A stretch of DNA of 64,000 nt, from contig CAZSZC010000001.1 in the NCBI GenBank assembly GCA_964610775.1, positions 60,017 through 124,016 on the forward strand, in the 5' to 3' direction. The DNA is from an uncultured Candidatus Saccharibacteria bacterium (GTDB taxonomy: Bacteria; Patescibacteriota; Saccharimonadia; Saccharimonadales; JACQNP01). The notes beneath the pieces are model-generated. The model made no database searches, was not told where the DNA came from, and saw nothing but the letters and a program-made list of their open reading frames with translations. A program made the translations under genes and the position numbers. This document shows, one piece after another, positions 9,924 to 61,687 of the stretch (its first letter is position 1; every line of letters begins with the position of its first letter).

Positions 9924-10673
9924 ATGAATGGAGGGGTTTTGATAGAAGTTAAAAACATTAGCAAAGTTTATGGAAAGAAAGACAATCTATTCATTGCACT
10001 TAATGATATTAGCTTAACTATTCCAGATGGTGCCACTGTGGCAATTACAGGTAAAAGCGGTAGTGGCAAAAGTACCCTCATGCACATAATGAGCGGCATT
10101 GATCACCCAAACGAGGGTGAGGTTATTGTGAATGGTAAGGATCTACACTCGCTCAAGAAAAAAGAGATGGATCGATTTCGTGCCGAGGAAATGAGCTTTA
10201 TTTTTCAGGCATTTTTTATCGAGGCTAATCAGTCTTGTTATCAAAACGTGGCGCTACCACTCGAGATCGCTGAGATTCCAAGTCGCCGTCGCCGTACAAT
10301 GGTGGAAAAAGCACTAGGCCGTGTTGACCTTAGTGAAAAGATAGATAGTAAAGCTGGTGACTTATCAGGTGGTCAAAAGCAACGACTTGCAATTGCTCGT
10401 GCGATTGTTAACAAACCCCAAATTATTTTTGCCGATGAGCCAACTGGTAACCTTGATTCTGCAACCGGTGATAAAATTATTGACTTACTATTTGAGCTTA
10501 ATAAGAAGCTCGGTTGTACCTTGTGTATTGTTACTCATGATGATGAGCTTGCGGAGCGATGCAAAATAAGAATACAGGTTAAAGACGGTGAAGTTGTGTC
10601 TATGACCGGCCGATCTGTATCTAAGCCTAAGACAAAAACGACTACTAGGAAGAAAGCTGGGGCTAAGTCATGA
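9924..10673 (+). CDS. ABC transporter ATP-binding protein (MacB/LolD-like) with Lys/Thr-rich C-terminal tail
   Basis: Walker A GKSGSGKST, signature LSGGQKQR, Walker B IIFADEPTGNLD, H-loop VTHD. The tail is SKPKTKTTTRKKAGAKS. Confidence 0.85.
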   Translation: MNGGVLIEVKNISKVYGKKDNLFIALNDISLTIPDGATVAITGKSGSGKSTLMHIMSGIDHPNEGEVIVNGKDLHSLKKKEMDRFRAEEMSFIFQAFFIEANQSCYQNVALPLEIAEIPSRRRRTMVEKALGRVDLSEKIDSKAGDLSGGQKQRLAIARAIVNKPQIIFADEPTGNLDSATGDKIIDLLFELNKKLGCTLCIVTHDDELAERCKIRIQVKDGEVVSMTGRSVSKPKTKTTTRKKAGAKS

Positions 10674-12034
10674 AAACAGTAGATGTATTAAAGCGCTCCA
10701 ACAGATCATTATTAAGCGCAAAGGCTAGGACTATTTTAACTGCTCTTGCTATTTCGGTTGGAACTTTTGCATTAACTTTAACGCTTGCTGCTAGTAATGG
10801 CGCACAAAATTTTGTTAATAAGATAATATCTGAAAATTTTGATCCTGCCGAGTTAATAGTAACAGCTGATCCAGATGTCTTGGGTAGGGCGGATACCAGC
10901 AAGCCCAAAGAGTATGACCCGAGTTTTGGCAGCTTTGTATCGAATGCGGGAGCGCCAGTACAGATTAAGCGTATAACAAACGAGGACATCAAAAAGATTG
11001 AACAGTTGGATGGTGTTGAGAAAGTGCGTGAAGGCGTGTCGGTTAATTTGCGGTATCTAACTAGAGAGGGCCAGAAAAAATATGTCGGCACGGTCGGTGT
11101 GTTTAGCCCATATCAAAAGCCAGAATTATTAGCGGGACAGGTTCCAGATCCATTGAATAACAAGCAGTTATTATTACCAGAGGCATTTCTGAGCTCGTTG
11201 GGTTTTAGTTCTGCTCAAGATGCTATAGGCAAGAAGCTTACCCTAGTGGTTAATAAGCCAATTAATCCTGATGCCGCAAAACAGGCATTGTCACAAGGTA
11301 TAAGTGGGCAAGATGCTCAGCAAATCGCTAATAATAATTCAGTAGCCGAAGAATTCACGATCGCAGCCGTCTTGAAAAAACCTACAACTGCACAGCCTGG
11401 AACTGAGCTTTATATTCTTGGCGGTATTGACGATGTTAAGAGGCTTAATGATGTAACAACTAATGGAACAGACAACTACGGTAAATATAGCTATATATTT
11501 GTAAGAGTTAAAGGCGGTGAAGATAAAACCAAGCTAACTGCTGTACAGAATGAGCTAAAGAACCTAGGCTTCGAGGCGCAAAGCGTTGAAGATACACAGA
11601 AGTTCCTAACTCAGATAATCAGCGTTCTGCAGGGTATAGTTGCGACATTTGGCATGATTGCTGTCATCGCTTCGGTGTTTGGTATTGTTAACACTATGTA
11701 CATCAGTGTCTTGCAGCGTACCCGTGAGATAGGTTTAATGAAGGCGCTGGGTATGCGCAAACGCGATGTGGGCAGATTGTTTAGGTTTGAGGCAGCTTGG
11801 ATTGGCTTCATCGGGGGTACTATCGGCGCTCTACTTGCTGTAATTGCTGGTACCGCGCTAAATCCATTCATCACCGACAAGCTCGAGCTAGGTAAGGATA
11901 GGTTACTAGTTTTTGATATAAAACAGATAGTAATCCTTATAGTGGCGCTTATAGTTGTCGCCATATTAGCTGGGTTACTTCCAGCTCGTAAAGCTGCAAA
12001 ACTTGATCCTATCGAAGCACTAAGAACAGAGTGA
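10670..12034 (+). CDS. ABC transporter permease, FtsX/MacB-type with large periplasmic domain
   Basis: N-terminal TM, a roughly 270-aa extracytoplasmic domain, then the C-terminal FtsX-like 3-TM bundle (RTREIGLMKALGMRKRDV...). ATGA overlap with the ATPase gene. Confidence 0.8.
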   Translation: MKTVDVLKRSNRSLLSAKARTILTALAISVGTFALTLTLAASNGAQNFVNKIISENFDPAELIVTADPDVLGRADTSKPKEYDPSFGSFVSNAGAPVQIKRITNEDIKKIEQLDGVEKVREGVSVNLRYLTREGQKKYVGTVGVFSPYQKPELLAGQVPDPLNNKQLLLPEAFLSSLGFSSAQDAIGKKLTLVVNKPINPDAAKQALSQGISGQDAQQIANNNSVAEEFTIAAVLKKPTTAQPGTELYILGGIDDVKRLNDVTTNGTDNYGKYSYIFVRVKGGEDKTKLTAVQNELKNLGFEAQSVEDTQKFLTQIISVLQGIVATFGMIAVIASVFGIVNTMYISVLQRTREIGLMKALGMRKRDVGRLFRFEAAWIGFIGGTIGALLAVIAGTALNPFITDKLELGKDRLLVFDIKQIVILIVALIVVAILAGLLPARKAAKLDPIEALRTE

Positions 12035-12344: not shown

Positions 12345-12727
12345 ATGGAGACAATAGTTTTGGGCGGTGGATGTTTCTGGTGCTTAGAAGCAACCTACCG
12401 ATTGGTTAGGGGTGTTGAAAAAGTTATTCCAGGCTAACATTCGACCCTTCGATCATAGAACTAAGTGAATTGCTTGAAATATTTTGGATTATTCATGATC
12501 CTACAACTATAAATAGACAAGGTAATGACGTTGGAGAGCAATATCGCTCGGTCGTTTTATATGATAACGATACTCAAAAGCAGGTTGTCGAAAATTCGCT
12601 CGATTACGCAGAACATCATAATTATTTTCAGACACATCCTGAGCAGTCTTATTGTCAGCTCGTAATAAATCCTAAATTGCAAAAATTACGTTCTAAATTT
12701 GCCAGTAAGTTAAAAGATGACTATTAA
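12345..12727 (+). pseudogene. msrA: Peptide methionine-S-sulfoxide reductase MsrA, disrupted (internal deletions plus frame change)
   Basis: 12345-12437 encodes [30 protein letters not shown] followed by TAA. A different frame from 12437 encodes TFDPSIIELSELLEIFWIIHDPTTINRQGNDVGEQYRSVVLY...AEHHNYFQTHPEQSYCQLVINPKL. The roughly 25-codon Y.GG..NPTYE.VC.G.TGHAEVV block between the two pieces is missing. Confidence 0.7.
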
Positions 12728-13405
12728 ACCCTTTGCGATAAAATATATTCCTAGAATAAGGCATATCCATTTGATGCTGGCTTTGTAGTTTTTGTTAAGT
12801 ATTGGGTCGACGCGTTGTTCCAGAAACTTAAGCGCATCAGGCCGCTTTAATGATGCTCCAAGAAGGCCAAGAAATGGCAACATACCAATACAAATAGTCC
12901 AAAATACCCCAAGTAAAATCAAAATGTAGTTATCGGTATATTCTTTAATTAATTTTGTTGCAGCGAGTATTCCAATTATGCTCGTGAAGCTAAGCGCAGA
13001 GCGGAAAAATGCAAAACTAAAAATAGATGCGTATGACAATGATGCTGTACTTTTTTTGAAAGCTTCGGCCGTTTTTGCGGGTAAATCCTGGTGATTTATA
13101 AATTGTCGGATAGCAATAAGTATCAAAATTATACCGATCGCAATATTCACAACAGGAGAAAGTTGAATACTGCTATGGAATGGCTGTAAGTATGTGTCTT
13201 CCTGAAAAATGACAGCACCAACTAGGGCAAATAATATAAGTGGAGTTGCTACACCGATCATAAAAATCAACGTATTTAACAGGGGTTTTTTAGATTTAAG
13301 GATAATTACTAACTCAGAAATAAGTAGTAGAGGGTTGAATGCAACAAATATGCCTAGAAAACTTAATTCTAGTACTAGCACCATAAGCTTAAGTAAATTC
13401 TCCAT
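12710..13405 (-). CDS. Polytopic membrane protein (possibly GAP/DUF2910-like)
   Basis: 231 aa with about 6 hydrophobic helices. The family guess rests only on overall architecture. The 3' end overlaps the msrA remnant by 18 nt (convergent). Confidence 0.45.
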   Translation of the reverse strand: MENLLKLMVLVLELSFLGIFVAFNPLLLISELVIILKSKKPLLNTLIFMIGVATPLILFALVGAVIFQEDTYLQPFHSSIQLSPVVNIAIGIILILIAIRQFINHQDLPAKTAEAFKKSTASLSYASIFSFAFFRSALSFTSIIGILAATKLIKEYTDNYILILLGVFWTICIGMLPFLGLLGASLKRPDALKFLEQRVDPILNKNYKASIKWICLILGIYFIAKGLIVIF

Positions 13406-13461: not shown

Positions 13462-14388
13462 ATGGCTACAACTACTAAATCAACCAAGGCAAAGACCAAA
13501 ACTGCAAAACCTAAATCCACCAAAACCACAAAGCCTAAAACAGCTAGTGCAAAAACACAAAAATCCACGACAAAAAAAGCTGTCCAAAAATCAGCCAAAA
13601 CGGCTGCAGTTATTACTAGATCTAGCAATGGTATGCTGCAAAAACTATACGCAATTAGTATTGCTGTGTATGTTGCGATTTTTGGTGCCGCATTGTTTCT
13701 TATGGGACAAAAGAGTTATCAACTAAGTATTGGTTATTGGACTCGAGATGAGCTCGCAAGTAAAACTTCTACGGTTTTTGCACCCGCGACACAAGGCTTA
13801 ATCGATGTACAAATTCGCTGGGTTGTCATGGCGATAGCTGTCGTTTCTGTAGTTATGCCAGTACTTTATTTGACTAGACTAAAGAGCTATCACCAAAAAG
13901 CCATGAAGAATAAAGTTCTACCAACTCGCTGGCTGGATATGGCGTTAGTCGGGGCTATTATGCTCGAAACCGTAGCAATTGTTAGCGGTGTTTTGGATAT
14001 AGGAACGCTGAAATTAGTCGGTGGTCTTATGGTGGTGACCTGTATTCTTGGCTGGATGGCCGAAAAACGAACTGCCGAGGCTGGACGCCCGGCAACTGCA
14101 AAGTACTACTTAAGTATGCTTACAGGATTATTGCCTTGGGTGTTAATTGTACTCTATGCAATTGCTACGCCCATCTATGGGGCAGTTAGGTCGCCATGGT
14201 ACGTCTATACTCTATATGCGGTGATGTTAATTGGCGCTGGTCTAATCGGAAGTAACCAACTCAAGGGACTTAGGGGTAAAGGTAAGCAGGCCAATTATGA
14301 AGTAGTGGAACAGAATTATGCCACACTCTCACTGTTGGTACGTACCGCTTTTGCTGTTGTTCTCATTGTTGGCCTAATGGCCAAATAG
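13462..14388 (+). CDS. Heliorhodopsin-like 7-TM protein lacking the retinal-binding lysine (Arg294), with Lys/Thr-rich N-terminal tail
   Basis: Seven hydrophobic helices follow a 50-aa KTKTAKPKSTK-type tail. Ungapped matches to recalled heliorhodopsin 48C12 motifs: MKN.....RW(L/V)(D/E), GW..EK, (L/V)PW, GKGK..NY...E..Y..LSL. See finding. Confidence 0.55.
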   Translation: MATTTKSTKAKTKTAKPKSTKTTKPKTASAKTQKSTTKKAVQKSAKTAAVITRSSNGMLQKLYAISIAVYVAIFGAALFLMGQKSYQLSIGYWTRDELASKTSTVFAPATQGLIDVQIRWVVMAIAVVSVVMPVLYLTRLKSYHQKAMKNKVLPTRWLDMALVGAIMLETVAIVSGVLDIGTLKLVGGLMVVTCILGWMAEKRTAEAGRPATAKYYLSMLTGLLPWVLIVLYAIATPIYGAVRSPWYVYTLYAVMLIGAGLIGSNQLKGLRGKGKQANYEVVEQNYATLSLLVRTAFAVVLIVGLMAK

Positions 14389-14391
14389 TCT

Positions 14392-15636
14392 ATGACTGAA
14401 CAAGTAAGAATATCCAAGCTTGTTCATGGCGGACAGGCTATCGGTGATCTAGCTGATGGCCGTAAGGTATTTGTTTGGAATGCATTGCCTGGAGAGTTGG
14501 TAGAAGTTCAGATTACACGAAAAAGAAAAGACTATTGTGAGGGAATCGCCGAAAAAATTATCGAATCGTCGCCTGAACGCGTTTCACCAAAAGACGAAGC
14601 ATACTTAAGTACTAGCCCTTGGCAAATACTTGATTTCGAAGCAGAAAATAAATATAAGAAAAATATATTGGAAGAAACATTAAGCCGCGAAAAGATTAGT
14701 TACGACAGGGAAATATCATTATCCACTGATAACAAACAGTGGCGTTATCGTAATAAAATGGAGTATTCTTTCTGGGCTGACGAAAGTGGTCTTCATCTGG
14801 CTTTATTTAACAGAGGTAGCCATGGTAAACGTATTGTCCCTGGTAGTAGTATTGCGCGCAGGGAGATCGACGAGACGGCTACCAAAATTCTAGTAGAATT
14901 AAATAAAGCCCAAATTCGAGGCAGTCAATTAAAGACATTAGTTGTTCGCTGTAATCAGCAGGGCGAGACAGTTGCGGCGCTGTTCGTGAAGGATGAAGAA
15001 TTTCCAAAATTACCGAGTTTACAGGCGGACTGCATAGGAATGGTAGTGTGTTATTCTACGCCGAAAAGTCCAGCTAGCGTACTGACGCGTCAGCTCTATA
15101 AATTTGGCGACGTAACCTTATCTGATGATCTTTTAGGAACTAATGTTAAGTATGGTGTTAATTCGTTTTTTCAAGTCAATATACCGGTATTCGAGTTAGC
15201 CTTAAATCGCATAGGTGAGTATTTAAACGGTTGCGAAAAAATTGATCTGTACTGTGGTGTTGGTTCGATTGGAGTTGCGCTCGGTAGTACAGAAGTCTTT
15301 GTTGATACCGACGCCCAAAACTGTGAGTATGCACGAATTAATGTAGCGAAGAGTGGCAAGGTGGTTCATGCAAACTCAGAGTATGTATTAGATTATGTTT
15401 CGGCCAACCAGGCACTTATAGTTGATCCGCCGCGAGCAGGTATGCATAGAAAACTAGTAGATAGAATTAATGAGGTTAAGCCGCTGATGGTTGCTTATCT
15501 TAGTTGCAACCCCAGCACGCAGGCTCGTGACCTTTCGTTACTCGAAACAAACTACGAATTAAAAACCGTTGAGGGTTACAACTTTTTCCCAAAAACACCA
15601 CACATAGAATCGTTAGCTGTTATGATTAGAAAATGA
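14392..15636 (+). CDS. TRAM-domain RNA (uracil-5-)-methyltransferase, RumA/TrmA family
   Basis: N-terminal TRAM-like barrel (GGQAIGDLADGRKVFVWNALPGELVEVQITRKRKDY), FFQVN, DLYCGVGSIG (SAM motif I), VDPPRAG, and YLSCNPSTQARD with the catalytic Cys. Confidence 0.8.
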   Translation: MTEQVRISKLVHGGQAIGDLADGRKVFVWNALPGELVEVQITRKRKDYCEGIAEKIIESSPERVSPKDEAYLSTSPWQILDFEAENKYKKNILEETLSREKISYDREISLSTDNKQWRYRNKMEYSFWADESGLHLALFNRGSHGKRIVPGSSIARREIDETATKILVELNKAQIRGSQLKTLVVRCNQQGETVAALFVKDEEFPKLPSLQADCIGMVVCYSTPKSPASVLTRQLYKFGDVTLSDDLLGTNVKYGVNSFFQVNIPVFELALNRIGEYLNGCEKIDLYCGVGSIGVALGSTEVFVDTDAQNCEYARINVAKSGKVVHANSEYVLDYVSANQALIVDPPRAGMHRKLVDRINEVKPLMVAYLSCNPSTQARDLSLLETNYELKTVEGYNFFPKTPHIESLAVMIRK

Positions 15637-28538: not shown

Positions 28539-29219
28539 ATGATTCTTTTTGATAGGGTAACGAAAGTATATAATCGCAGTAATACCGCCTTAGATCGCGT
28601 TAGTTTACATGTTGAGCCCAAGGAATTTGTGATAATTATTGGTAAAAGTGGCGCCGGTAAATCGACGTTATTAAAGCTTCTCACCAGAGAAGAGCGACCA
28701 ACTAGTGGCAAAATCGTGGTTGGCGGCGTTGATTATGACAAACTAAAAGATAGAGACATACCATTACTGCGTCGAAAGATAGGTGTTGTTTTTCAGGATT
28801 TTAAACTGCTTCCTAATAAAACGGTATTTGAAAACGTGGCTTTTGCGCTCGAAATAGTTGGTTTTGGCAATAAAGAAATTAACCACACGGTTCCGCGTGT
28901 TTTGGATATTGTTGGATTGAAGGGCAAAGAGCGTCGCATGCCAATGGAGTTGTCTGGTGGTGAGCGACAGCGTGTTGCAATAGCTCGAGCAATAGTGCGA
29001 CAGCCAAAAATTCTAATTGCCGACGAACCAACAGGTAACCTTGACCCGAAACATGCATGGGATGTTATAAAGGTCCTAGAAAAGATTAATCGTTACGGTA
29101 CAACTGTTCTACTAACGACACATAATCAAGATATTGTTAATAAATTGAAGCGGCGAGTTATTACTATTAATGACGGTAAGGTCGAGAGTGATCGAGCTAA
29201 TGCGGAGTATAAGCACTAA
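28539..29219 (+). CDS. ftsE: Cell-division ABC ATPase FtsE
   Basis: Walker A GKSGAGKST, LSGGERQRVAIARA, ILIADEPTGNLD. It is followed directly by ftsX. Confidence 0.9.
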   Translation: MILFDRVTKVYNRSNTALDRVSLHVEPKEFVIIIGKSGAGKSTLLKLLTREERPTSGKIVVGGVDYDKLKDRDIPLLRRKIGVVFQDFKLLPNKTVFENVAFALEIVGFGNKEINHTVPRVLDIVGLKGKERRMPMELSGGERQRVAIARAIVRQPKILIADEPTGNLDPKHAWDVIKVLEKINRYGTTVLLTTHNQDIVNKLKRRVITINDGKVESDRANAEYKH

Positions 29220-30163
29220 TGAGACGAGGGTTAATATCTTTCAGTCGTGTTGTTAGAGCTGGTTTACAGAACTTTGCGCGCAATTTAACGTTAGCGATTG
29301 CCGCTATGGCAGTCATGTTTATTACTCTTACTATTGTTCTGTTTTCTGTAATAGTAAACGCGACCTTTGCACATACAGTTCAGCAGATTACTGATAAAAT
29401 TGATATATCTGTTTACCTGATTGACGATATTAAAGATTCGCAGCGCGAAAAATTAATAAATGACCTAAAATCCATAGATAACGTAAAAAGTATCGAGTAT
29501 GTGTCGAAAGACCAAGCTCTTGAACTATATAAGAAGCAGAATGCCGACAATATCGATTTGCTGGTTGCAATATCTCAAACCGATAATCCGCTTCCAGCTA
29601 GCTTGCAGGTTAAGCCGAAAGATCCAAATAGAATTGATGAAATAAAACAATTCCTTGAAAAACCCGAAATCAAGTCTTTACAATCGGATGAAACCTCATA
29701 TTCTGGCGATCGAAAAGAAGCTATAGATAAAATTTCAAAGGCTACAAGGTTCTTTCGTGAAGCCGGAATAGTCGGTGTTATTATCTTCATGATGGTATCG
29801 GTTCTAATAATATTCAACACTATACGAATGGCAATATTTAACCGGCGTGATGAATTAACGATAATGCGATTATTGGGTGCCGGTACCTGGTATATAAGAG
29901 GACCGTTTATAGTTGAGACAGTAATATACGGAATAATTGCTGGAACTTTGTCGATTGTGGCAGTCGGCTCAATGTTTGCTGTTTCATCAAACGCATTTGA
30001 TGCTAGTAGTCTTGGATTACTAGATATTAAGTTTGCCAGTGATTATTTTGCAAACCATTTCGCTACAATAGTGCTGGTACAGATAAGTATAGGTGTGATT
30101 ATTGGTGCTTTTTCGTCTTTCATCGCAACCAGGCGCTATCTTAAGTTTAAGAGTTCAAAATAG
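29219..30163 (+). CDS. ftsX: Cell-division permease-like protein FtsX
   Basis: N-terminal TM, an extracytoplasmic domain (..YVSKDQALELYKK..NPLPASL), then a C-terminal 3-TM FtsX bundle (R.DELTIMRLLGA). TAATG overlap with ftsE. Confidence 0.85.
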   Translation: MRRGLISFSRVVRAGLQNFARNLTLAIAAMAVMFITLTIVLFSVIVNATFAHTVQQITDKIDISVYLIDDIKDSQREKLINDLKSIDNVKSIEYVSKDQALELYKKQNADNIDLLVAISQTDNPLPASLQVKPKDPNRIDEIKQFLEKPEIKSLQSDETSYSGDRKEAIDKISKATRFFREAGIVGVIIFMMVSVLIIFNTIRMAIFNRRDELTIMRLLGAGTWYIRGPFIVETVIYGIIAGTLSIVAVGSMFAVSSNAFDASSLGLLDIKFASDYFANHFATIVLVQISIGVIIGAFSSFIATRRYLKFKSSK

Positions 30164-30228
30164 GTAACAACATACTAAATGAAGCTAAATTGCAAAGACT
30201 TGTGTCTTATGTTAATATTAAACAGGTT

Positions 30229-31419
30229 ATGCTAAAACAAAAAGCTCAACCGGTTATAAGAAGTTTAGGCACAAACATGCTTGTTCTTGTGTTGTTGCTA
30301 GTTTTTACCGGAAGTTTCTTAATAACACCTCTTGTAAAAGCCGATAAGTTTGATGAACAAATTAAGCAATTGTCAGCTGAAAATCAACAAAAGAAGGAGC
30401 AAGTTAACTCACTGGCCATAGAAGCTAGTAGTATTCAAGATACCATTTCTAAGTTGGAGGCACAGATAAGTGGTCTACAGGCTCAGATTACTGCTAATCA
30501 AGCCAAGAATGAAAAACTAAAATCCGAAATAGATATTGCACAAAAAGAACTGGACAAACAAAAGAAGCTTTTGGGTGAAAATATTAAAGCTATGTATTTA
30601 GAAGGGCAGATAAGTACACTCGAAATGCTGGCATCAAGTAAAGATCTGAGCGAGTTTGTTGATAAAGAGCAATATCGTGATGCTGTGAAGAGTAAAATCA
30701 AGACTTCACTGGACAGAGTAACCGATCTAAAGACTCAGCTTAAGAATCAAAAAGAAGCTGTTGAAAAACTTTTGGCAGAACAGCAGTCACTGCGTAGTCA
30801 GGTTGCTTCACAGCGGGCTCAGCAGGAAAGGCTTTTGTCTCTAAACCAGTCACAGCAAGACAGTTTCAATCAAGATATCCAGGCTAATCAAGATAAAATC
30901 AAAGAACTAAAGCGTCAGCAGGTGCTAGAAAACGTTAAGCTTTTTGGTGGTGGTGTTCAGCCTGGTATTCCTGGGGGTGGTGGTTATCCATGGGGTAACG
31001 CTTACTGTGCGCACACGGGTCAGGTTGGTGGTGATTGTTGGAATTACGACTGGGAATTTAATGGTAGTCCTTGGGATTCATGGGGTTATGGTTTTCGTAA
31101 CTGTACAAGTTGGGTTGCATATAAGTTGGCTTCCGATGGCAAAGTAGGCTTTACGTACTTAGGAAATGCAACTAACTGGCCTAGTGGAGCAGCGGCAAGA
31201 GGCATAGCTGTTTCATATGGTTCTGGTGCTAGGCCCGGTGATGCAGCTGTTAGGCAAAGTGGATATTACGGACATGTAATGTATGTGGAGGCTGTGACTG
31301 GTGACGGCCAGGTAATTGTCAGTGACTACAACCGTATGGGCGATGGTTTATATCGTGGTCCAGATGGTGGTAGTGCGGCAGTGCTGAGTCAATCTGGTTT
31401 GGCTTTCATCCATTTCTAA
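30229..31419 (+). CDS. Secreted coiled-coil + CHAP-domain peptidoglycan hydrolase (PcsB/CwlO-like FtsEX partner candidate)
   Basis: Signal/TM segment MLVLVLLLVFTGSFLITPLVKA, about 190 aa of heptad-rich coiled coil, and a C-terminal CHAP-like domain with NCTSWVAYKL (Cys) and GHVMYVEAV (His). The track ORF starts at TTG 30190. ATG 30229 is preferred because it has TGtTAATAT 10 nt upstream. Confidence 0.75.
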   Translation: MLKQKAQPVIRSLGTNMLVLVLLLVFTGSFLITPLVKADKFDEQIKQLSAENQQKKEQVNSLAIEASSIQDTISKLEAQISGLQAQITANQAKNEKLKSEIDIAQKELDKQKKLLGENIKAMYLEGQISTLEMLASSKDLSEFVDKEQYRDAVKSKIKTSLDRVTDLKTQLKNQKEAVEKLLAEQQSLRSQVASQRAQQERLLSLNQSQQDSFNQDIQANQDKIKELKRQQVLENVKLFGGGVQPGIPGGGGYPWGNAYCAHTGQVGGDCWNYDWEFNGSPWDSWGYGFRNCTSWVAYKLASDGKVGFTYLGNATNWPSGAAARGIAVSYGSGARPGDAAVRQSGYYGHVMYVEAVTGDGQVIVSDYNRMGDGLYRGPDGGSAAVLSQSGLAFIHF

Positions 31420-31483
31420 GTTTTCTGTCGTAGCATAGATGTGAATGTGTAATAATAAACTGGTCAAAACATAGGAGGAATTA

Positions 31484-32710
31484 GTGTATAAAGAGGTAGT
31501 GTCCGATAAACCAAAGCGTCCGAAATGGCTTAAAACATTATTAATTACACTTGGAGTGGCTGGAGTTTTTCTGCTTGGGCTGTATATTGGAAATGGCAAC
31601 ATAGCATTTGGATCGATTAATCTTAAGAAAAATAACCAAAATACTTCTAAGTTACCGGCAAATCTTAATTACACTTCAGTTGAACAGTTATATGATGCAC
31701 TAAAGTTGAGCTACGATGGTGAACTAGACCAAGCGAAGCTAGTTGACGGTATGAAGAAAGGACTGGTTGAGGCAGCTGGCGACCAGTACACGGAATATCT
31801 TAATGAAAAAGAATCAAAAGATTTCAACGACAGTCTTAATGGTACATTTAGTGGCATTGGTGCGGAATTAAGTAAGGACAACGATGCGATTGTAATAATT
31901 GCACCTATTTCTGGTTATCCTGCAGATAAGGCAGGGCTAAAGGCGAAAGATGTAATAGTTAAAATTAATGATGAAAATGCTACAAATATGTCAGTTTCTG
32001 ACGCAGTTAAAAAAATACGTGGGCCAGAAGGAACTAGTGTAAAACTTAAAATTATACGTGGTGGCACTGAGGAAAAAGAGTTTACAATTAACAGAGAAAA
32101 AATAACTATTCCTAGTGTTGAATCAAGTATCGATAGTAACAATATTGGCTACATAAAAATAAGTCGCTTTGCTGAAGATACTAGTGCATTGACCGAAAAA
32201 GCAGCCCAAGACTTCAAAGCCAAAAACGTTAAGGGTATCGTAGTCGATTTGCGCAATGATCCGGGTGGACTACTAGATGCTGCCGTTGATGTTTCAAGTC
32301 TTTGGCTGGACAAGAATGCGCTAATACTACAAGAAAAGCGTGGTGATCAAGTAGTTAAAACTTACAAAGCCAAAGGTGGCCAAGTTCTAAAGGGAATTCC
32401 AACCGTTATTTTGATAAACGAAGGTAGTGCCAGTGCCAGCGAAATTACTGCGGGGGCCTTAAGGGACAACAAAGTGGCTACTTTAATGGGTGTAAAATCG
32501 TTTGGTAAGGGCAGTGTGCAGCAATTGGCTGACTTGCGTGGCGGCGGCGTTCTGAAGGTAACGGTCGCAAAATGGTATACACCGGCAGGTAAGAATATCA
32601 ATAAGGAAGGCATTGAACCAGACACAAAGGTTGAATTGACTGAAGACAACGCGAAAAACAAGCAAGACCCCCAAAAAGACGCCGCCATTGAATATATAAA
32701 CAAGAATTAG
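31484..32710 (+). CDS. ctpA: S41 C-terminal processing (tail-specific) peptidase with PDZ
   Basis: F.GIG.......I.....GYPA.KAGL...D.I..I (PDZ), DLRNDPGGLLD, INEGSASASEI (catalytic Ser), and GVKSFGKGSVQ (Lys). GTG start 6 nt after AGGAGG. Confidence 0.85.
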   Translation: MYKEVVSDKPKRPKWLKTLLITLGVAGVFLLGLYIGNGNIAFGSINLKKNNQNTSKLPANLNYTSVEQLYDALKLSYDGELDQAKLVDGMKKGLVEAAGDQYTEYLNEKESKDFNDSLNGTFSGIGAELSKDNDAIVIIAPISGYPADKAGLKAKDVIVKINDENATNMSVSDAVKKIRGPEGTSVKLKIIRGGTEEKEFTINREKITIPSVESSIDSNNIGYIKISRFAEDTSALTEKAAQDFKAKNVKGIVVDLRNDPGGLLDAAVDVSSLWLDKNALILQEKRGDQVVKTYKAKGGQVLKGIPTVILINEGSASASEITAGALRDNKVATLMGVKSFGKGSVQQLADLRGGGVLKVTVAKWYTPAGKNINKEGIEPDTKVELTEDNAKNKQDPQKDAAIEYINKN

Positions 32711-59911: not shown

Positions 59912-61687
59912 ATGGGCGCAAACATACAACCAAATAATTATTTAGGCCCCTTACAACGCATACGCTTTTGGTATGCGATATTGCTCGTTATCACGGCTGT
60001 TTTTGTCGTGCGTCTGTTTTATCTACAAGTTATAAAACATGATTATTACAATACTAGTGCACTCAAGGGTCAGCTCAAGGAGTATGAAATACCTGCTAAA
60101 CGAGGTGTTATTGAAGCACATAGCGGCAACGATATTGTCCCAATAGTTTTGAATGAGACTAAGTATACATTGTTTGCTGATCCGAAATTTATAACAAATC
60201 CAGGCGATAGTGCTGGTAAAATTCAACAGATTATTGGTGGCAATTCTCAAGATTATGAAAATAAAATGAAAGTACCCAACAGTCGGTATGCGATACTCGC
60301 CAAAAAACTTGATAAATCTCAAAGCGATAGAATTATGGCACTAGGTATCAAAGGAATTGGAACCAGAGAGGCGGTATACAGGACGTATCCCCAGGGATCC
60401 CTGGGTTCTCAGGTGTTAGGTTTTGTAAATGATGATGGTCAAGGTAAATATGGCCTTGAACAAGCGCTGGATCAGGATCTACAAGGTAAACCAGGCTTGC
60501 TGAAGGCAATTACTGATGCACGCGGCGTTCCGCTAGCTTCTCAGAAGGATAACGTACTCATAGAACCTATTGATGGTAAGCGAGTTGTACTTACGGTTGA
60601 TCTAGGTATGCAGCAGCAACTCGAAGAGATACTCAAGCAGGGTTTAGACAGAGCTAGATCAAAATCCGGCAGCGCTTTGATTATGAACGTAAAAACAGGG
60701 GAGATTAAAGCAATGGCCAACTATCCGACCTACAATCCAGCCGAATACAATAAGGTAGAGGATGCGTCGCTATTTACGAATCCCGCTGTTAGTTCTCCTC
60801 TTGAGGTAGGGTCAATTATGAAACCACTAACTGCGGCAGCGGCACTCGATAAAGGAGTTGTTAATCGTAACACGTCTTATTATGACCCGAGCTATTTCAT
60901 AGTTGATGATGCCAAAATTACTAATATCGAAGAGGATGGTGGTGCTGGTACAAAAACAGTACAGGACATAATACAGTTATCTCTAAATACAGGTGCAACA
61001 TGGCTACTTATGCAAATGGGCGGTGGCAAGATCAACGAGCAAGCTCGTGTGACTTGGCACGATTATATGACCAATCACTACGGTTTTGGTAAGCTAACAG
61101 GCATCGAACAAGGATACGAGTCGGAAGGTTCGATTCCTGATCCCAAGAACGGATTTGGGCTTGATATACAGTATGCAAACTCAGCCTTCGGGCAGGGTAT
61201 GACGGCTACGCCTCTACAAATGGCAGCGGCTATGGGTAGCGTTATCAATGGCGGCACCTATTACCGGCCACGCTTAATTGACAAGATAATTGGGGATAAC
61301 GACAAAACGATTGATCAGAAGAAGCCTGAGGTGGTAAGAACTAATGTCGTAAACCAGCAAACCAGTAAAGACATAAGAGAAATAATGGAGTACGCATTTT
61401 CTAAGAACTACCTTATTTACGGCTTGAAAGATCCGCGACCTAATTATTCAATTGGCGCAAAGACCGGCACCGCACAAGTAGCAAAACCTGGCGGCGGATA
61501 CTACGAAGATAGATTTAACGGTACTTTCTTGAGCTATGTTGGTGGTAATGATCCAGAATATATTGTTGCTGTTAGAGTAAACGAACCGGGAATTGCTGGA
61601 TATGCGGGCGCCAAGGCGGCTGCGCCAATTGGCCTTGGCTTAATAAATATGTTGATTGATAATTTTGGCGTATCACCCAAGAACTAA
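59912..61687 (+). CDS. ftsI: Class B penicillin-binding protein (FtsI/PBP-type transpeptidase)
   Basis: N-terminal TM, a dimerisation domain, and SxxK (GSIMKP), SxN (SLN) and KTGT motifs. Confidence 0.9.
   Translation: MGANIQPNNYLGPLQRIRFWYAILLVITAVFVVRLFYLQVIKHDYYNTSALKGQLKEYEIPAKRGVIEAHSGNDIVPIVLNETKYTLFADPKFITNPGDSAGKIQQIIGGNSQDYENKMKVPNSRYAILAKKLDKSQSDRIMALGIKGIGTREAVYRTYPQGSLGSQVLGFVNDDGQGKYGLEQALDQDLQGKPGLLKAITDARGVPLASQKDNVLIEPIDGKRVVLTVDLGMQQQLEEILKQGLDRARSKSGSALIMNVKTGEIKAMANYPTYNPAEYNKVEDASLFTNPAVSSPLEVGSIMKPLTAAAALDKGVVNRNTSYYDPSYFIVDDAKITNIEEDGGAGTKTVQDIIQLSLNTGATWLLMQMGGGKINEQARVTWHDYMTNHYGFGKLTGIEQGYESEGSIPDPKNGFGLDIQYANSAFGQGMTATPLQMAAAMGSVINGGTYYRPRLIDKIIGDNDKTIDQKKPEVVRTNVVNQQTSKDIREIMEYAFSKNYLIYGLKDPRPNYSIGAKTGTAQVAKPGGGYYEDRFNGTFLSYVGGNDPEYIVAVRVNEPGIAGYAGAKAAAPIGLGLINMLIDNFGVSPKN

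Follow-up and report, generated by a model that had tools for sequence, protein, structure and literature searches.

A Heliorhodopsin Descendant With Arginine in Place of the Retinal-Binding Lysine, From a Divergent Protein Family of Candidatus Saccharibacteria

Results and Discussion

The genome of an uncultured Candidatus Saccharibacteria bacterium encodes a protein that is a clear heliorhodopsin descendant, yet fails the criterion that defines this family, the presence of a lysine to which retinal is bound. Its gene lies in a stretch of 64,000 nucleotides (positions 60,017 to 124,016 of the forward strand of contig CAZSZC010000001.1, assembly GCA_964610775.1), which was analyzed as a whole and is termed the window here; coordinates refer to it unless another locus is named. 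The complete coding sequence (13462..14388, + strand) starts with ATG, ends with TAG, and encodes 308 amino acids (aa), with an arginine (Arg294) at the Schiff-base position. The reading that we favor, with a probability of about 0.7, is that this is a working, chromophore-free descendant of the heliorhodopsins (HeRs), in which an Arg-Asp pair is present, the retinal pocket has been remodeled, and a light-independent activity is retained, probably the binding or regulation of a partner.

Family Assignment and Predicted Fold

A first-pass annotation of this DNA, made from the sequence alone, had described the product as a heliorhodopsin-like protein with seven transmembrane (7TM) helices, and this homology is borne out by profile, sequence, and structure comparisons. 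The Pfam Heliorhodopsin family (PF18761) gives a significant match of 93.2 bits (cut-off 26.7; E 2e-26) over residues 63-305, corresponding to profile positions 4-241 of 242, while the NCBIfam "HeR" equivalog model (NF038020) scores 91.1 bits and misses its cut-off of 100. Sequence searches of the PDB returned heliorhodopsins only (48C12, TaHeR, and others), with an E-value of ~1e-15 for the single protein and 7e-29 for a profile of its clade.

A model made with AlphaFold2 from 38 clade sequences (mean predicted local distance difference test score, pLDDT, 76.5; predicted template modeling score, pTM, 0.71) places the 7TM domain at residues 56-308 (13627..14385, +), with helices at residues 56-80, 118-138, 154-174, 180-207, 212-239, 246-271, and 279-307 (helix pLDDT mostly >80) and a short helix (141-150) in the loop between the second and third transmembrane helices (TM2 and TM3). 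The long TM1-TM2 (AB) loop (residues 85-117; 13714..13812, +) is modeled as a β-hairpin (DSSP strands 85-95 and 106-117), a hallmark of the heliorhodopsins that is also seen in 48C12, whose AB loop is long and β-structured (PMC7049168, PMC13295031). When the model was compared with the PDB using Foldseek, the ten top-ranked chains were all heliorhodopsins, with target-normalized template modeling scores of 0.83-0.90 and root-mean-square deviations (rmsd) of 2.2-2.9 Å; these included TaHeR (6is6; 0.89, rmsd 2.2 Å) and 48C12 (0.83-0.88), whereas type-1 rhodopsins scored no higher than 0.71, with rmsd of ~7-9 Å. The domain is preceded by a Lys/Thr/Ala/Ser-rich, basic tail (residues 1-55; 13462..13626, +) that is predicted to be disordered and cytoplasmic. 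On the loops of the model, 24 Lys and Arg residues lie inside vs. 5 outside (8 vs. 5 without the tail), a distribution that fits the predicted inverted topology, in which the N-terminus is cytoplasmic. The seven helices, the long first loop, and the N-in orientation put forward in the first-pass annotation are all in agreement with the model and the charge count.

The exact protein also occurs in three other independent assemblies. The clade profile, run with HMMER against 1.84 billion cluster representatives, gave 1,813 hits at E<=1e-3, of which 288 were at E<=1e-30. Metagenome-assembled genomes of Candidatus Saccharibacteria / Saccharimonadales (Patescibacteria) are the source of every named relative and of each of the 16 genome hits, and the one relative whose sample could be traced (P0015) comes from a wastewater nutrient-removal pilot plant. 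Members of the clade that includes the window protein are named "hypothetical protein" in the databases, whereas canonical Saccharibacteria HeRs are named "heliorhodopsin HeR."

The Schiff-Base Site

Correspondence with 48C12 was determined from four independent alignments: pairwise phmmer against the PDB chains of 48C12, the clade profile against the PDB (hmmsearch), MAFFT, and hmmalign. All four place R294 opposite K241, D159 opposite E107, S290 opposite S237, and R156/W157 opposite R104/W105, and in the phmmer alignment residues 140-304 are paired with 48C12 residues 89-251 with two one-residue gaps only. The first-pass annotation had arrived at the same Arg and Asp assignments from fragments of 48C12 that it quoted; these fragments match the PDB sequence, and the essentially gapless alignment and both assignments were confirmed. 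Arg294 is encoded by CGT (14341-14343), at the end of a TM7 motif, S290-L-L-V-R294 (14329..14343, +), that replaces the SxxxK motif of heliorhodopsins, and Asp159 is encoded by GAT (13936-13938), at the end of the TM3 motif R156-W157-L158-D159 (13927..13938, +; R104-W105-V106-E107 in 48C12).

The guanidinium group of arginine forms no stable imine with retinal, and the protein therefore cannot form a retinal Schiff base, a conclusion already drawn in the first-pass annotation and supported by this chemistry. As had also been observed there, no other Lys occurs in TM7 (residues 279-307 in the model), the C-terminal K308 being the sole Lys nearby. In 48C12, the Schiff base is directly hydrogen-bonded to Glu107 and Ser237 (PMC7049168), the equivalents of Asp159 and Ser290.

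Recurrent Loss of the Lysine in a Divergent Family

Saccharibacteria carry two distinct heliorhodopsin families, an abundant canonical one and a divergent one to which the window protein belongs. Across 120 canonical Saccharibacteria HeRs, the residues K241, H23, H80, R104, W105, E107, Y108, F206, and S237 (48C12 numbering) are each found in 120/120 sequences. The divergent family is without His23 and His80, has a conserved Glu169/Lys184 pair (window protein numbering), and usually has a long basic N-terminal tail. At the Schiff-base column of 184 aligned members of this family, Lys is present in 121 (one of which is the 48C12 reference), Arg in 43, and another residue in 20 (Thr, Ala, Leu, Val, Gln, Ile, Tyr, Asn, or Ser), with a gap in 2; these are referred to below as Lys-type, Arg-type, and neutral-type sequences. 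The lysine is missing in 37/148 (25%) of sequences from a set of 150 representatives at 50% identity.

We analyzed the phylogeny of the divergent sequences with a neighbor-joining tree rooted with 48C12. A survey of homologs for Lys vs. Arg, of the kind suggested in the first-pass annotation, places the window protein in a monophyletic, all-Arg clade (n=23) nested among Lys-bearing sisters. Clade members share 53-96% identity in the 7TM domain and all 23 have Arg at this column, so that Arg294 is not a chance occurrence; the tree has Lys at its root, which identifies Arg as the derived state. The replacement described in the first-pass annotation is therefore real, although the protein is not a lone oddity but one of a whole clade within a divergent paralog family. 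Parsimony gives 23 changes between Lys and non-Lys states and 26 maximal non-Lys clades, and a tree-free check identifies 15 sequences without Lys that have a Lys-bearing protein as their nearest relative in the set. Judged from these sequences, the lysine appears to have been lost independently at least about 15 times in the divergent family, and Arg appears to be the favored replacement.

The position of the gene in the chromosome was compared across 27 related loci. The common slot consists of an ATP-binding cassette (ABC) ATPase, an FtsX/MacB permease, (DUF427), MsrA, (an SfLAP-family protein), the heliorhodopsin-like gene, an RlmD-like methyltransferase, RsmE, and a PD-(D/E)XK nuclease, beyond which the syntenic block continues with SerRS, HPF, and SecA. 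This order is unchanged whether Lys, Arg, Thr, or Leu occupies the Schiff-base column. Since the Arg-type and Lys-type proteins occupy the same syntenic slot, they are orthologs, and the gene order indicates that the heliorhodopsin-like gene is a core, vertically inherited gene.

A Proposed Charge Pair and the Former Retinal Pocket

Replacements at the Schiff-base column covary with the residue at the counter-ion position. All of the lineages with an Arg replacement keep an acidic counter-ion (11/11), as opposed to 4/13 with a non-basic replacement (Fisher p = 6e-4), and at the level of sequences Asp or Glu is kept in 41/43 Arg-type vs. 4/20 neutral-type proteins (Fisher p = 2e-9). The simplest reading of this pattern would be that a buried charge pair is either preserved, as Arg+/Asp-, or removed altogether. 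In the window protein, the guanidinium group of Arg294 would pair with Asp159, so that the two take the place of counter-ion and protonated Schiff base, and such a pair could balance the buried charge without a pigment.

A substitute for the missing lysine was also considered. K184, the sole conserved intramembrane Lys, was rejected for this role, given that it lies near the extracellular end of TM4 and is equally conserved in Lys-bearing relatives (98/120) and in Arg-type sequences (41/43). Separately, Lys184 (14011-14013, at the start of TM4; L132 in 48C12) and Glu169 (13966-13968, TM3; V117 in 48C12) are conserved across the divergent family, in Lys-type and Arg-type proteins equally, and lie in the protein's extracellular half, which has been described as fully hydrophobic in 48C12; the two residues look like a family-specific salt bridge.

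Three substitutions in the all-Arg clade map to the retinal pocket of 48C12. Met160 (13939..13941, +), at the position of the pocket-wall residue Tyr108, occurs in 100% of the clade vs. 15 of ~120 Lys-bearing relatives. Met190 (14029..14031, +), at the position of Asn138, which lies near the β-ionone ring in 48C12 (PMC7049168), occurs in 96% of the clade vs. 19 of ~120 in the Lys group. Ala259 (14236..14238, +), at the position of the pocket-wall residue Phe206, is present in the window protein and in all nine other clade sequences compared, whereas 10/11 Lys-bearing sequences have Phe there. Canonical HeRs have Tyr and Phe at the Tyr108 and Phe206 positions without exception (120/120 each). 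These clade-specific residues may together have remodeled the former retinal pocket.

These substitutions bear on whether the protein could still be a photoreceptor that holds retinal or another chromophore (e.g., a carotenoid) non-covalently. A non-covalent ligand had already been raised in the first-pass annotation, and some of the pocket's aromatic and polar residues are still present (W157, W198, P225-W226, Q266, and S290). However, the arginine side chain fills the position of the would-be lysine-retinal linkage, and the replacement of the pocket walls (Tyr108 by Met, Phe206 by Ala), together with that of Asn138 by Met, is fixed in the clade. Retinal that is neither bound nor protonated absorbs in the near-UV and would make a poor sensor. 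Furthermore, no retinal or carotenoid genes were found among the ~47 window open reading frames (ORFs) scanned against Pfam, a set that took in ORFs of at least 200 aa across the window and shorter ones only within the 2.5-26 kb stretch around the gene; the statement in the first-pass annotation that the window has no such genes holds for this scanned part. We consider a non-covalent photoreceptor very unlikely.

Much of the cytoplasmic-side polar network is kept (R156, W157, D159, E201, Q266, Y279, E283, and S290). Equivalents of 48C12 E149, Q213, Y226, E230, and Y233 are all retained in the window protein; alignment A2 shows no variation at R156 or W157; and among Arg-type sequences W157 and E201 (48C12 E149) are conserved in 43/43, R156 in 41/43, and E283 in 39/43, with Q266 and Y279 mostly kept. 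The protein could be, instead of a partner-binding protein, one that senses or conducts a small ligand or ion, independently of light, through this charged cytoplasmic-side cavity (R156, D159, E201, E283, and R294). In 48C12, acetate binds in the homologous cavity, for which binding of carbonate has also been proposed (PMC7049168); viral HeRs can conduct protons, as cited in PMC11109279 and PMC12873467. Against this, the cavity-lining residues His23, His80, Asn101, and Tyr108 of 48C12 are all replaced in the window protein (His23 by V71 and His80 by P133 in the hmmalign alignment), and no transport-related or signaling gene is specifically linked to the locus in the 27 loci compared. This alternative is unlikely as a replacement for partner binding, although sensing of a small ligand or ion by the retained polar cavity may be a further possibility for a light-independent protein.

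Selection and a Proposed Light-Independent Role

In comparison with the ortholog P0001, the 7TM domain of the window protein has a ratio of nonsynonymous to synonymous substitution rates (dN/dS) of 0.031, at a dS of 0.70. Such strong purifying selection indicates that the protein still works, and for a protein that still works without a Schiff base, a light-independent role is the natural reading; the inference of such a role in the first-pass annotation gains support from this low ratio (dN/dS 0.03). The opposite view, in which the gene is decaying, either on its way to becoming a pseudogene or left over as a neutral remnant of a heliorhodopsin that has fallen out of use, has a precedent in earlier surveys that took Lys-less hits as possible pseudogenes (bioRxiv 10.1101/2021.02.16.431466), and the adjoining msrA is truly a pseudogene. 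It is excluded for practical purposes by the intact reading frame, by the dN/dS of 0.03 at a dS of 0.7 (a divergence that is too large for an artifact of very recent separation), by the retention of Arg in 23/23 clade members at 53-96% identity together with the counter-ion, and by synonymous turnover of the Arg codon, which is CGT, CGA, or AGA among five orthologs.

For the chromophore-free, working protein that we favor, light-independent action would keep the "dark" half of the heliorhodopsin role: the binding, scaffolding, or regulation of a partner, with the conserved cytoplasmic loops and the basic N-terminal tail as candidate contacts. The partner-binding idea is drawn by analogy from OcHeR and AbHeR. 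OcHeR binds its ABC transporter via intracellular loops, and the complex forms in the dark, light serving only to raise the activity of the transporter (PMC11109279); AbHeR binds glutamine synthetase (PMC9529153). Saccharibacteria appear to rely on host-supplied retinal (bioRxiv 10.1101/2022.02.13.480300), and escape from this dependence on a cofactor is therefore a plausible evolutionary driver.

Several points weigh against this reading. The absence of a pigment is one that we infer from chemistry, and the Arg294-Asp159 contact is a proposed one. The pocket is not obviously filled, and some of its changes (F206A and S112G) shrink side chains, unlike in the FArhodopsins, where bulky residues block the pocket. 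Most of the conserved neighbors are housekeeping genes in a streamlined genome and do not point to a partner. The counts of independent losses depend on a neighbor-joining tree of divergent sequences, although the tree-free count is still at least 15.

A different kind of partner is suggested by one of the related loci. In L006, a canonical HeR gene (2021-2824, + strand of that locus) lies directly upstream of an Arg-type ortholog (P0004; 2884-3804) that is 78% identical to the window protein; the canonical product has 267 aa, a Pfam score of 313.7 bits, an SLVAK motif, and a Glu counter-ion. The Arg-type protein might pair, as a subunit, with a canonical, Lys-bearing heliorhodopsin of the same cell and so tune or silence its photosignaling. 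Heliorhodopsins are dimers, the AB hairpin that forms the dimer is kept in the model of the window protein, and canonical HeRs are abundant in Saccharibacteria. Silencing or tuning of this kind has been proposed for type-1 Rh-noK proteins, which lack the retinal lysine and are encoded beside proteorhodopsin (PMC10308929, bioRxiv 10.1101/2025.04.29.651185). However, the tandem arrangement with a canonical HeR is found in 1/27 related loci (L006 only), neither a second HeR nor a type-1 rhodopsin occurs within the 64-kb window, and the two paralog families are very divergent (93 vs. 314 Pfam bits). We regard such subunit pairing as improbable.

The conserved, widespread, and repeatedly evolved branch of retinal-incapable proteins argues that at least part of the role of this fold is light-independent. 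Extending the preferred reading of the window protein to its relatives, we tentatively propose, with less than even confidence, that the whole vertically inherited paralog family of Saccharibacteria heliorhodopsins has a core function that needs neither retinal nor light, and that the lysine was lost at least ~15-25 times, either to Arg, whose ion pair would mimic the dark state, or to neutral residues, in which case the carboxylate was lost too. If this is true, these natural "dark-locked" variants would be a genetic tool for separating the light-independent activity of heliorhodopsins, namely partner binding by way of the cytoplasmic loops and the basic tail, from their photochemistry. What heliorhodopsins do has been a matter of debate since 2018, and few cases of partner regulation are known; Lys and Arg orthologs in a single genomic slot may serve as natural controls in finding that function.

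Comparison With Known Rhodopsin-Fold Proteins

The window protein shares with the canonical HeRs (HeR-48C12 and TaHeR) the overall fold, the AB-loop hairpin, the short BC helix, the N-in topology, the TM3 motif R-W-x-(E/D), and the TM7 Ser located four residues before the Schiff-base position. It differs from them in having Arg for the Schiff-base Lys, Val for His23, Pro for His80, Met for both Tyr108 and Asn138, and Ala for Phe206, as well as a 55-residue basic tail and the charged E169/K184 pair in the extracellular half; its Pfam score of 93 bits compares with 314 bits for a canonical Saccharibacteria HeR.

Rhodopsin-fold proteins without the lysine are already established among type-1 and type-2 opsins. 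The Rh-noK proteins (type-1, e.g., xanthorhodopsin-related, from marine betaproteobacteria) are likewise conserved 7TM proteins that lack the retinal lysine, and their tandem with proteorhodopsin resembles the L006 tandem of an Arg-type protein and a Lys-bearing paralog. In contrast to Rh-noK, the window protein has heliorhodopsin (type-3, inverted) ancestry, its relatives rarely occur in tandem (1/27), and Arg is specifically the replacement, with the counter-ion kept. The FArhodopsins also retain a classical rhodopsin fold without retinal in streamlined bacterial genomes; the marine FArhodopsins, however, keep the lysine and have a pocket blocked by His84 and Glu120, whereas the window protein is without the lysine and belongs to a different rhodopsin type. 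The Schiff-base lysine has also been lost from haloarchaeal Lys-less opsins, fungal opsin-related proteins (ORPs), and animal "gluopsins," which are presumed or shown to be retinal-free, and of which the yeast ORPs regulate the plasma-membrane H+-ATPase. These belong to unrelated type-1 and type-2 lineages, with neither the inverted topology nor the basic tail.

Within the heliorhodopsins, no description of lysine-less members was found in searches of the open literature, which returned only type-1 cases and surveys filtered on the lysine. Three heliorhodopsin surveys (Chiriac et al., 2022; Bulzu et al., 2022; Chazan et al.) required the TM7 lysine as an inclusion criterion, and TM7 motifs such as SLLVR were not found in the available portion of the text of Chiriac et al. 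(2022). One paper, without further detail, counts ~600 Rh-noK genes among 5,558 from microbial rhodopsins "including HeRs." The discarding of sequences without the TM7 lysine in three surveys, along with the labeling of such proteins as "hypothetical" in databases, represents a blind spot in the literature.

The N-Terminal Tail

Residues 1-55 of the window protein include 16 Lys and Arg and no acidic residues (residues 1-58 are 26% K and 26% T), and the tail is predicted to be disordered, with AlphaFold pLDDT <50 at residues 1-53. A tail of this kind is unique to the heliorhodopsin-like gene among the 77 ORFs of the window. In the divergent family, 131/182 members have a tail of at least 30 residues (median length 60), with an average composition of 24% K, 20% T, 15% A, and 11% S. 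Because it is common to Lys-type and Arg-type proteins (80 and 36 tail carriers, respectively), the tail is older than, and independent of, the loss of the lysine.

The first-pass annotation had termed this tail histone-like. The basic, Lys/Thr-rich composition stands, but the likeness to histones does not extend beyond composition: a homology search with the tail alone gave no match at E<=0.01, and a Pfam scan at E<=10 gave only sub-threshold matches (CECR6_TMEM121, RIC3, DUF6465, and DUF3464) and no histone or nucleoid-protein family. The tail evolves faster than the 7TM domain (dN/dS 0.58 at a dS of 0.185 vs. 0.03, in comparison with P0001; the ratio for the tail is 0.144 at a dS of 1.556 in comparison with P0002), yet its composition and its first 14 residues are kept, and the starting motif MATTTKSTKAKTKT is conserved across orthologs. 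Selection that acts on the charge and composition of the tail, and on a short motif at its N-terminus, would fit this pattern. The charge of a cytoplasmic tail suggests that it may bind nucleic acid, acidic lipid, or an acidic partner electrostatically.

Genomic Neighborhood

The heliorhodopsin-like gene is followed, 3 nt past its stop codon, by a TRAM / tRNA(U5)-methyltransferase (RlmD-like) gene identified with Pfam (14392..15636, +), with which it is probably co-transcribed. This gene is the conserved downstream neighbor in 17/27 loci, of every Schiff-base state. Located 56 bp upstream, on the opposite strand and divergently transcribed, is a gene for an SfLAP-family membrane protein with six transmembrane helices (12710..13405, -; PF11139, 65.5 bits), which recurs in the closest relatives (L001, L002, L006, and L022-L026) and is missing in more distant ones.

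In most related loci, the immediate upstream neighbor is an intact msrA. The msrA of the window (12345..12727, +) is a pseudogene, with two internal deletions (~79 and ~69 bp) in comparison with the intact, 175-aa ortholog of L023 and an in-frame stop: its N-terminal, GCFWC-containing part (12345-12437) ends in a stop, and the remnant covers only profile positions 67-120 of 153. An identical 85-aa remnant is called in an independent assembly (L025). Between the FtsX permease and this remnant is a DUF427 gene (PF04248; 12042-12344, +), and the pairing of DUF427 with msrA also occurs beside Lys-type and Thr-type orthologs (L005, L010, L013, and L019).

A functional link to the MacB-type ABC transporter encoded upstream, like that of OcHeR with OmrDE, was considered and rejected, as the adjacency is missing in L005 and the block consists of housekeeping genes. 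No flotillin-family match was found among the scanned neighbors of the heliorhodopsin-like gene. The MacB-type pair (9924-12034) is distinct from a second ABC/FtsX pair in a cell-division and cell-wall cluster (28539-32710, +), which encodes an FtsE-like ABC ATPase, an FtsX that has an extracellular domain, a protein with a CHAP domain, and a PDZ-containing C-terminal processing peptidase (S41).

An Rfam scan of the 64-kb window found no family at the gathering score (no tRNA, rRNA, or riboswitch). In keeping with a Saccharibacteria genome, the window has a GC content of ~41%, almost all of its genes on one strand, and largely housekeeping content; 65/77 of its ORFs are on the + strand and GC skew is positive in 31/32 2-kb windows, which fits a long leading-strand stretch.

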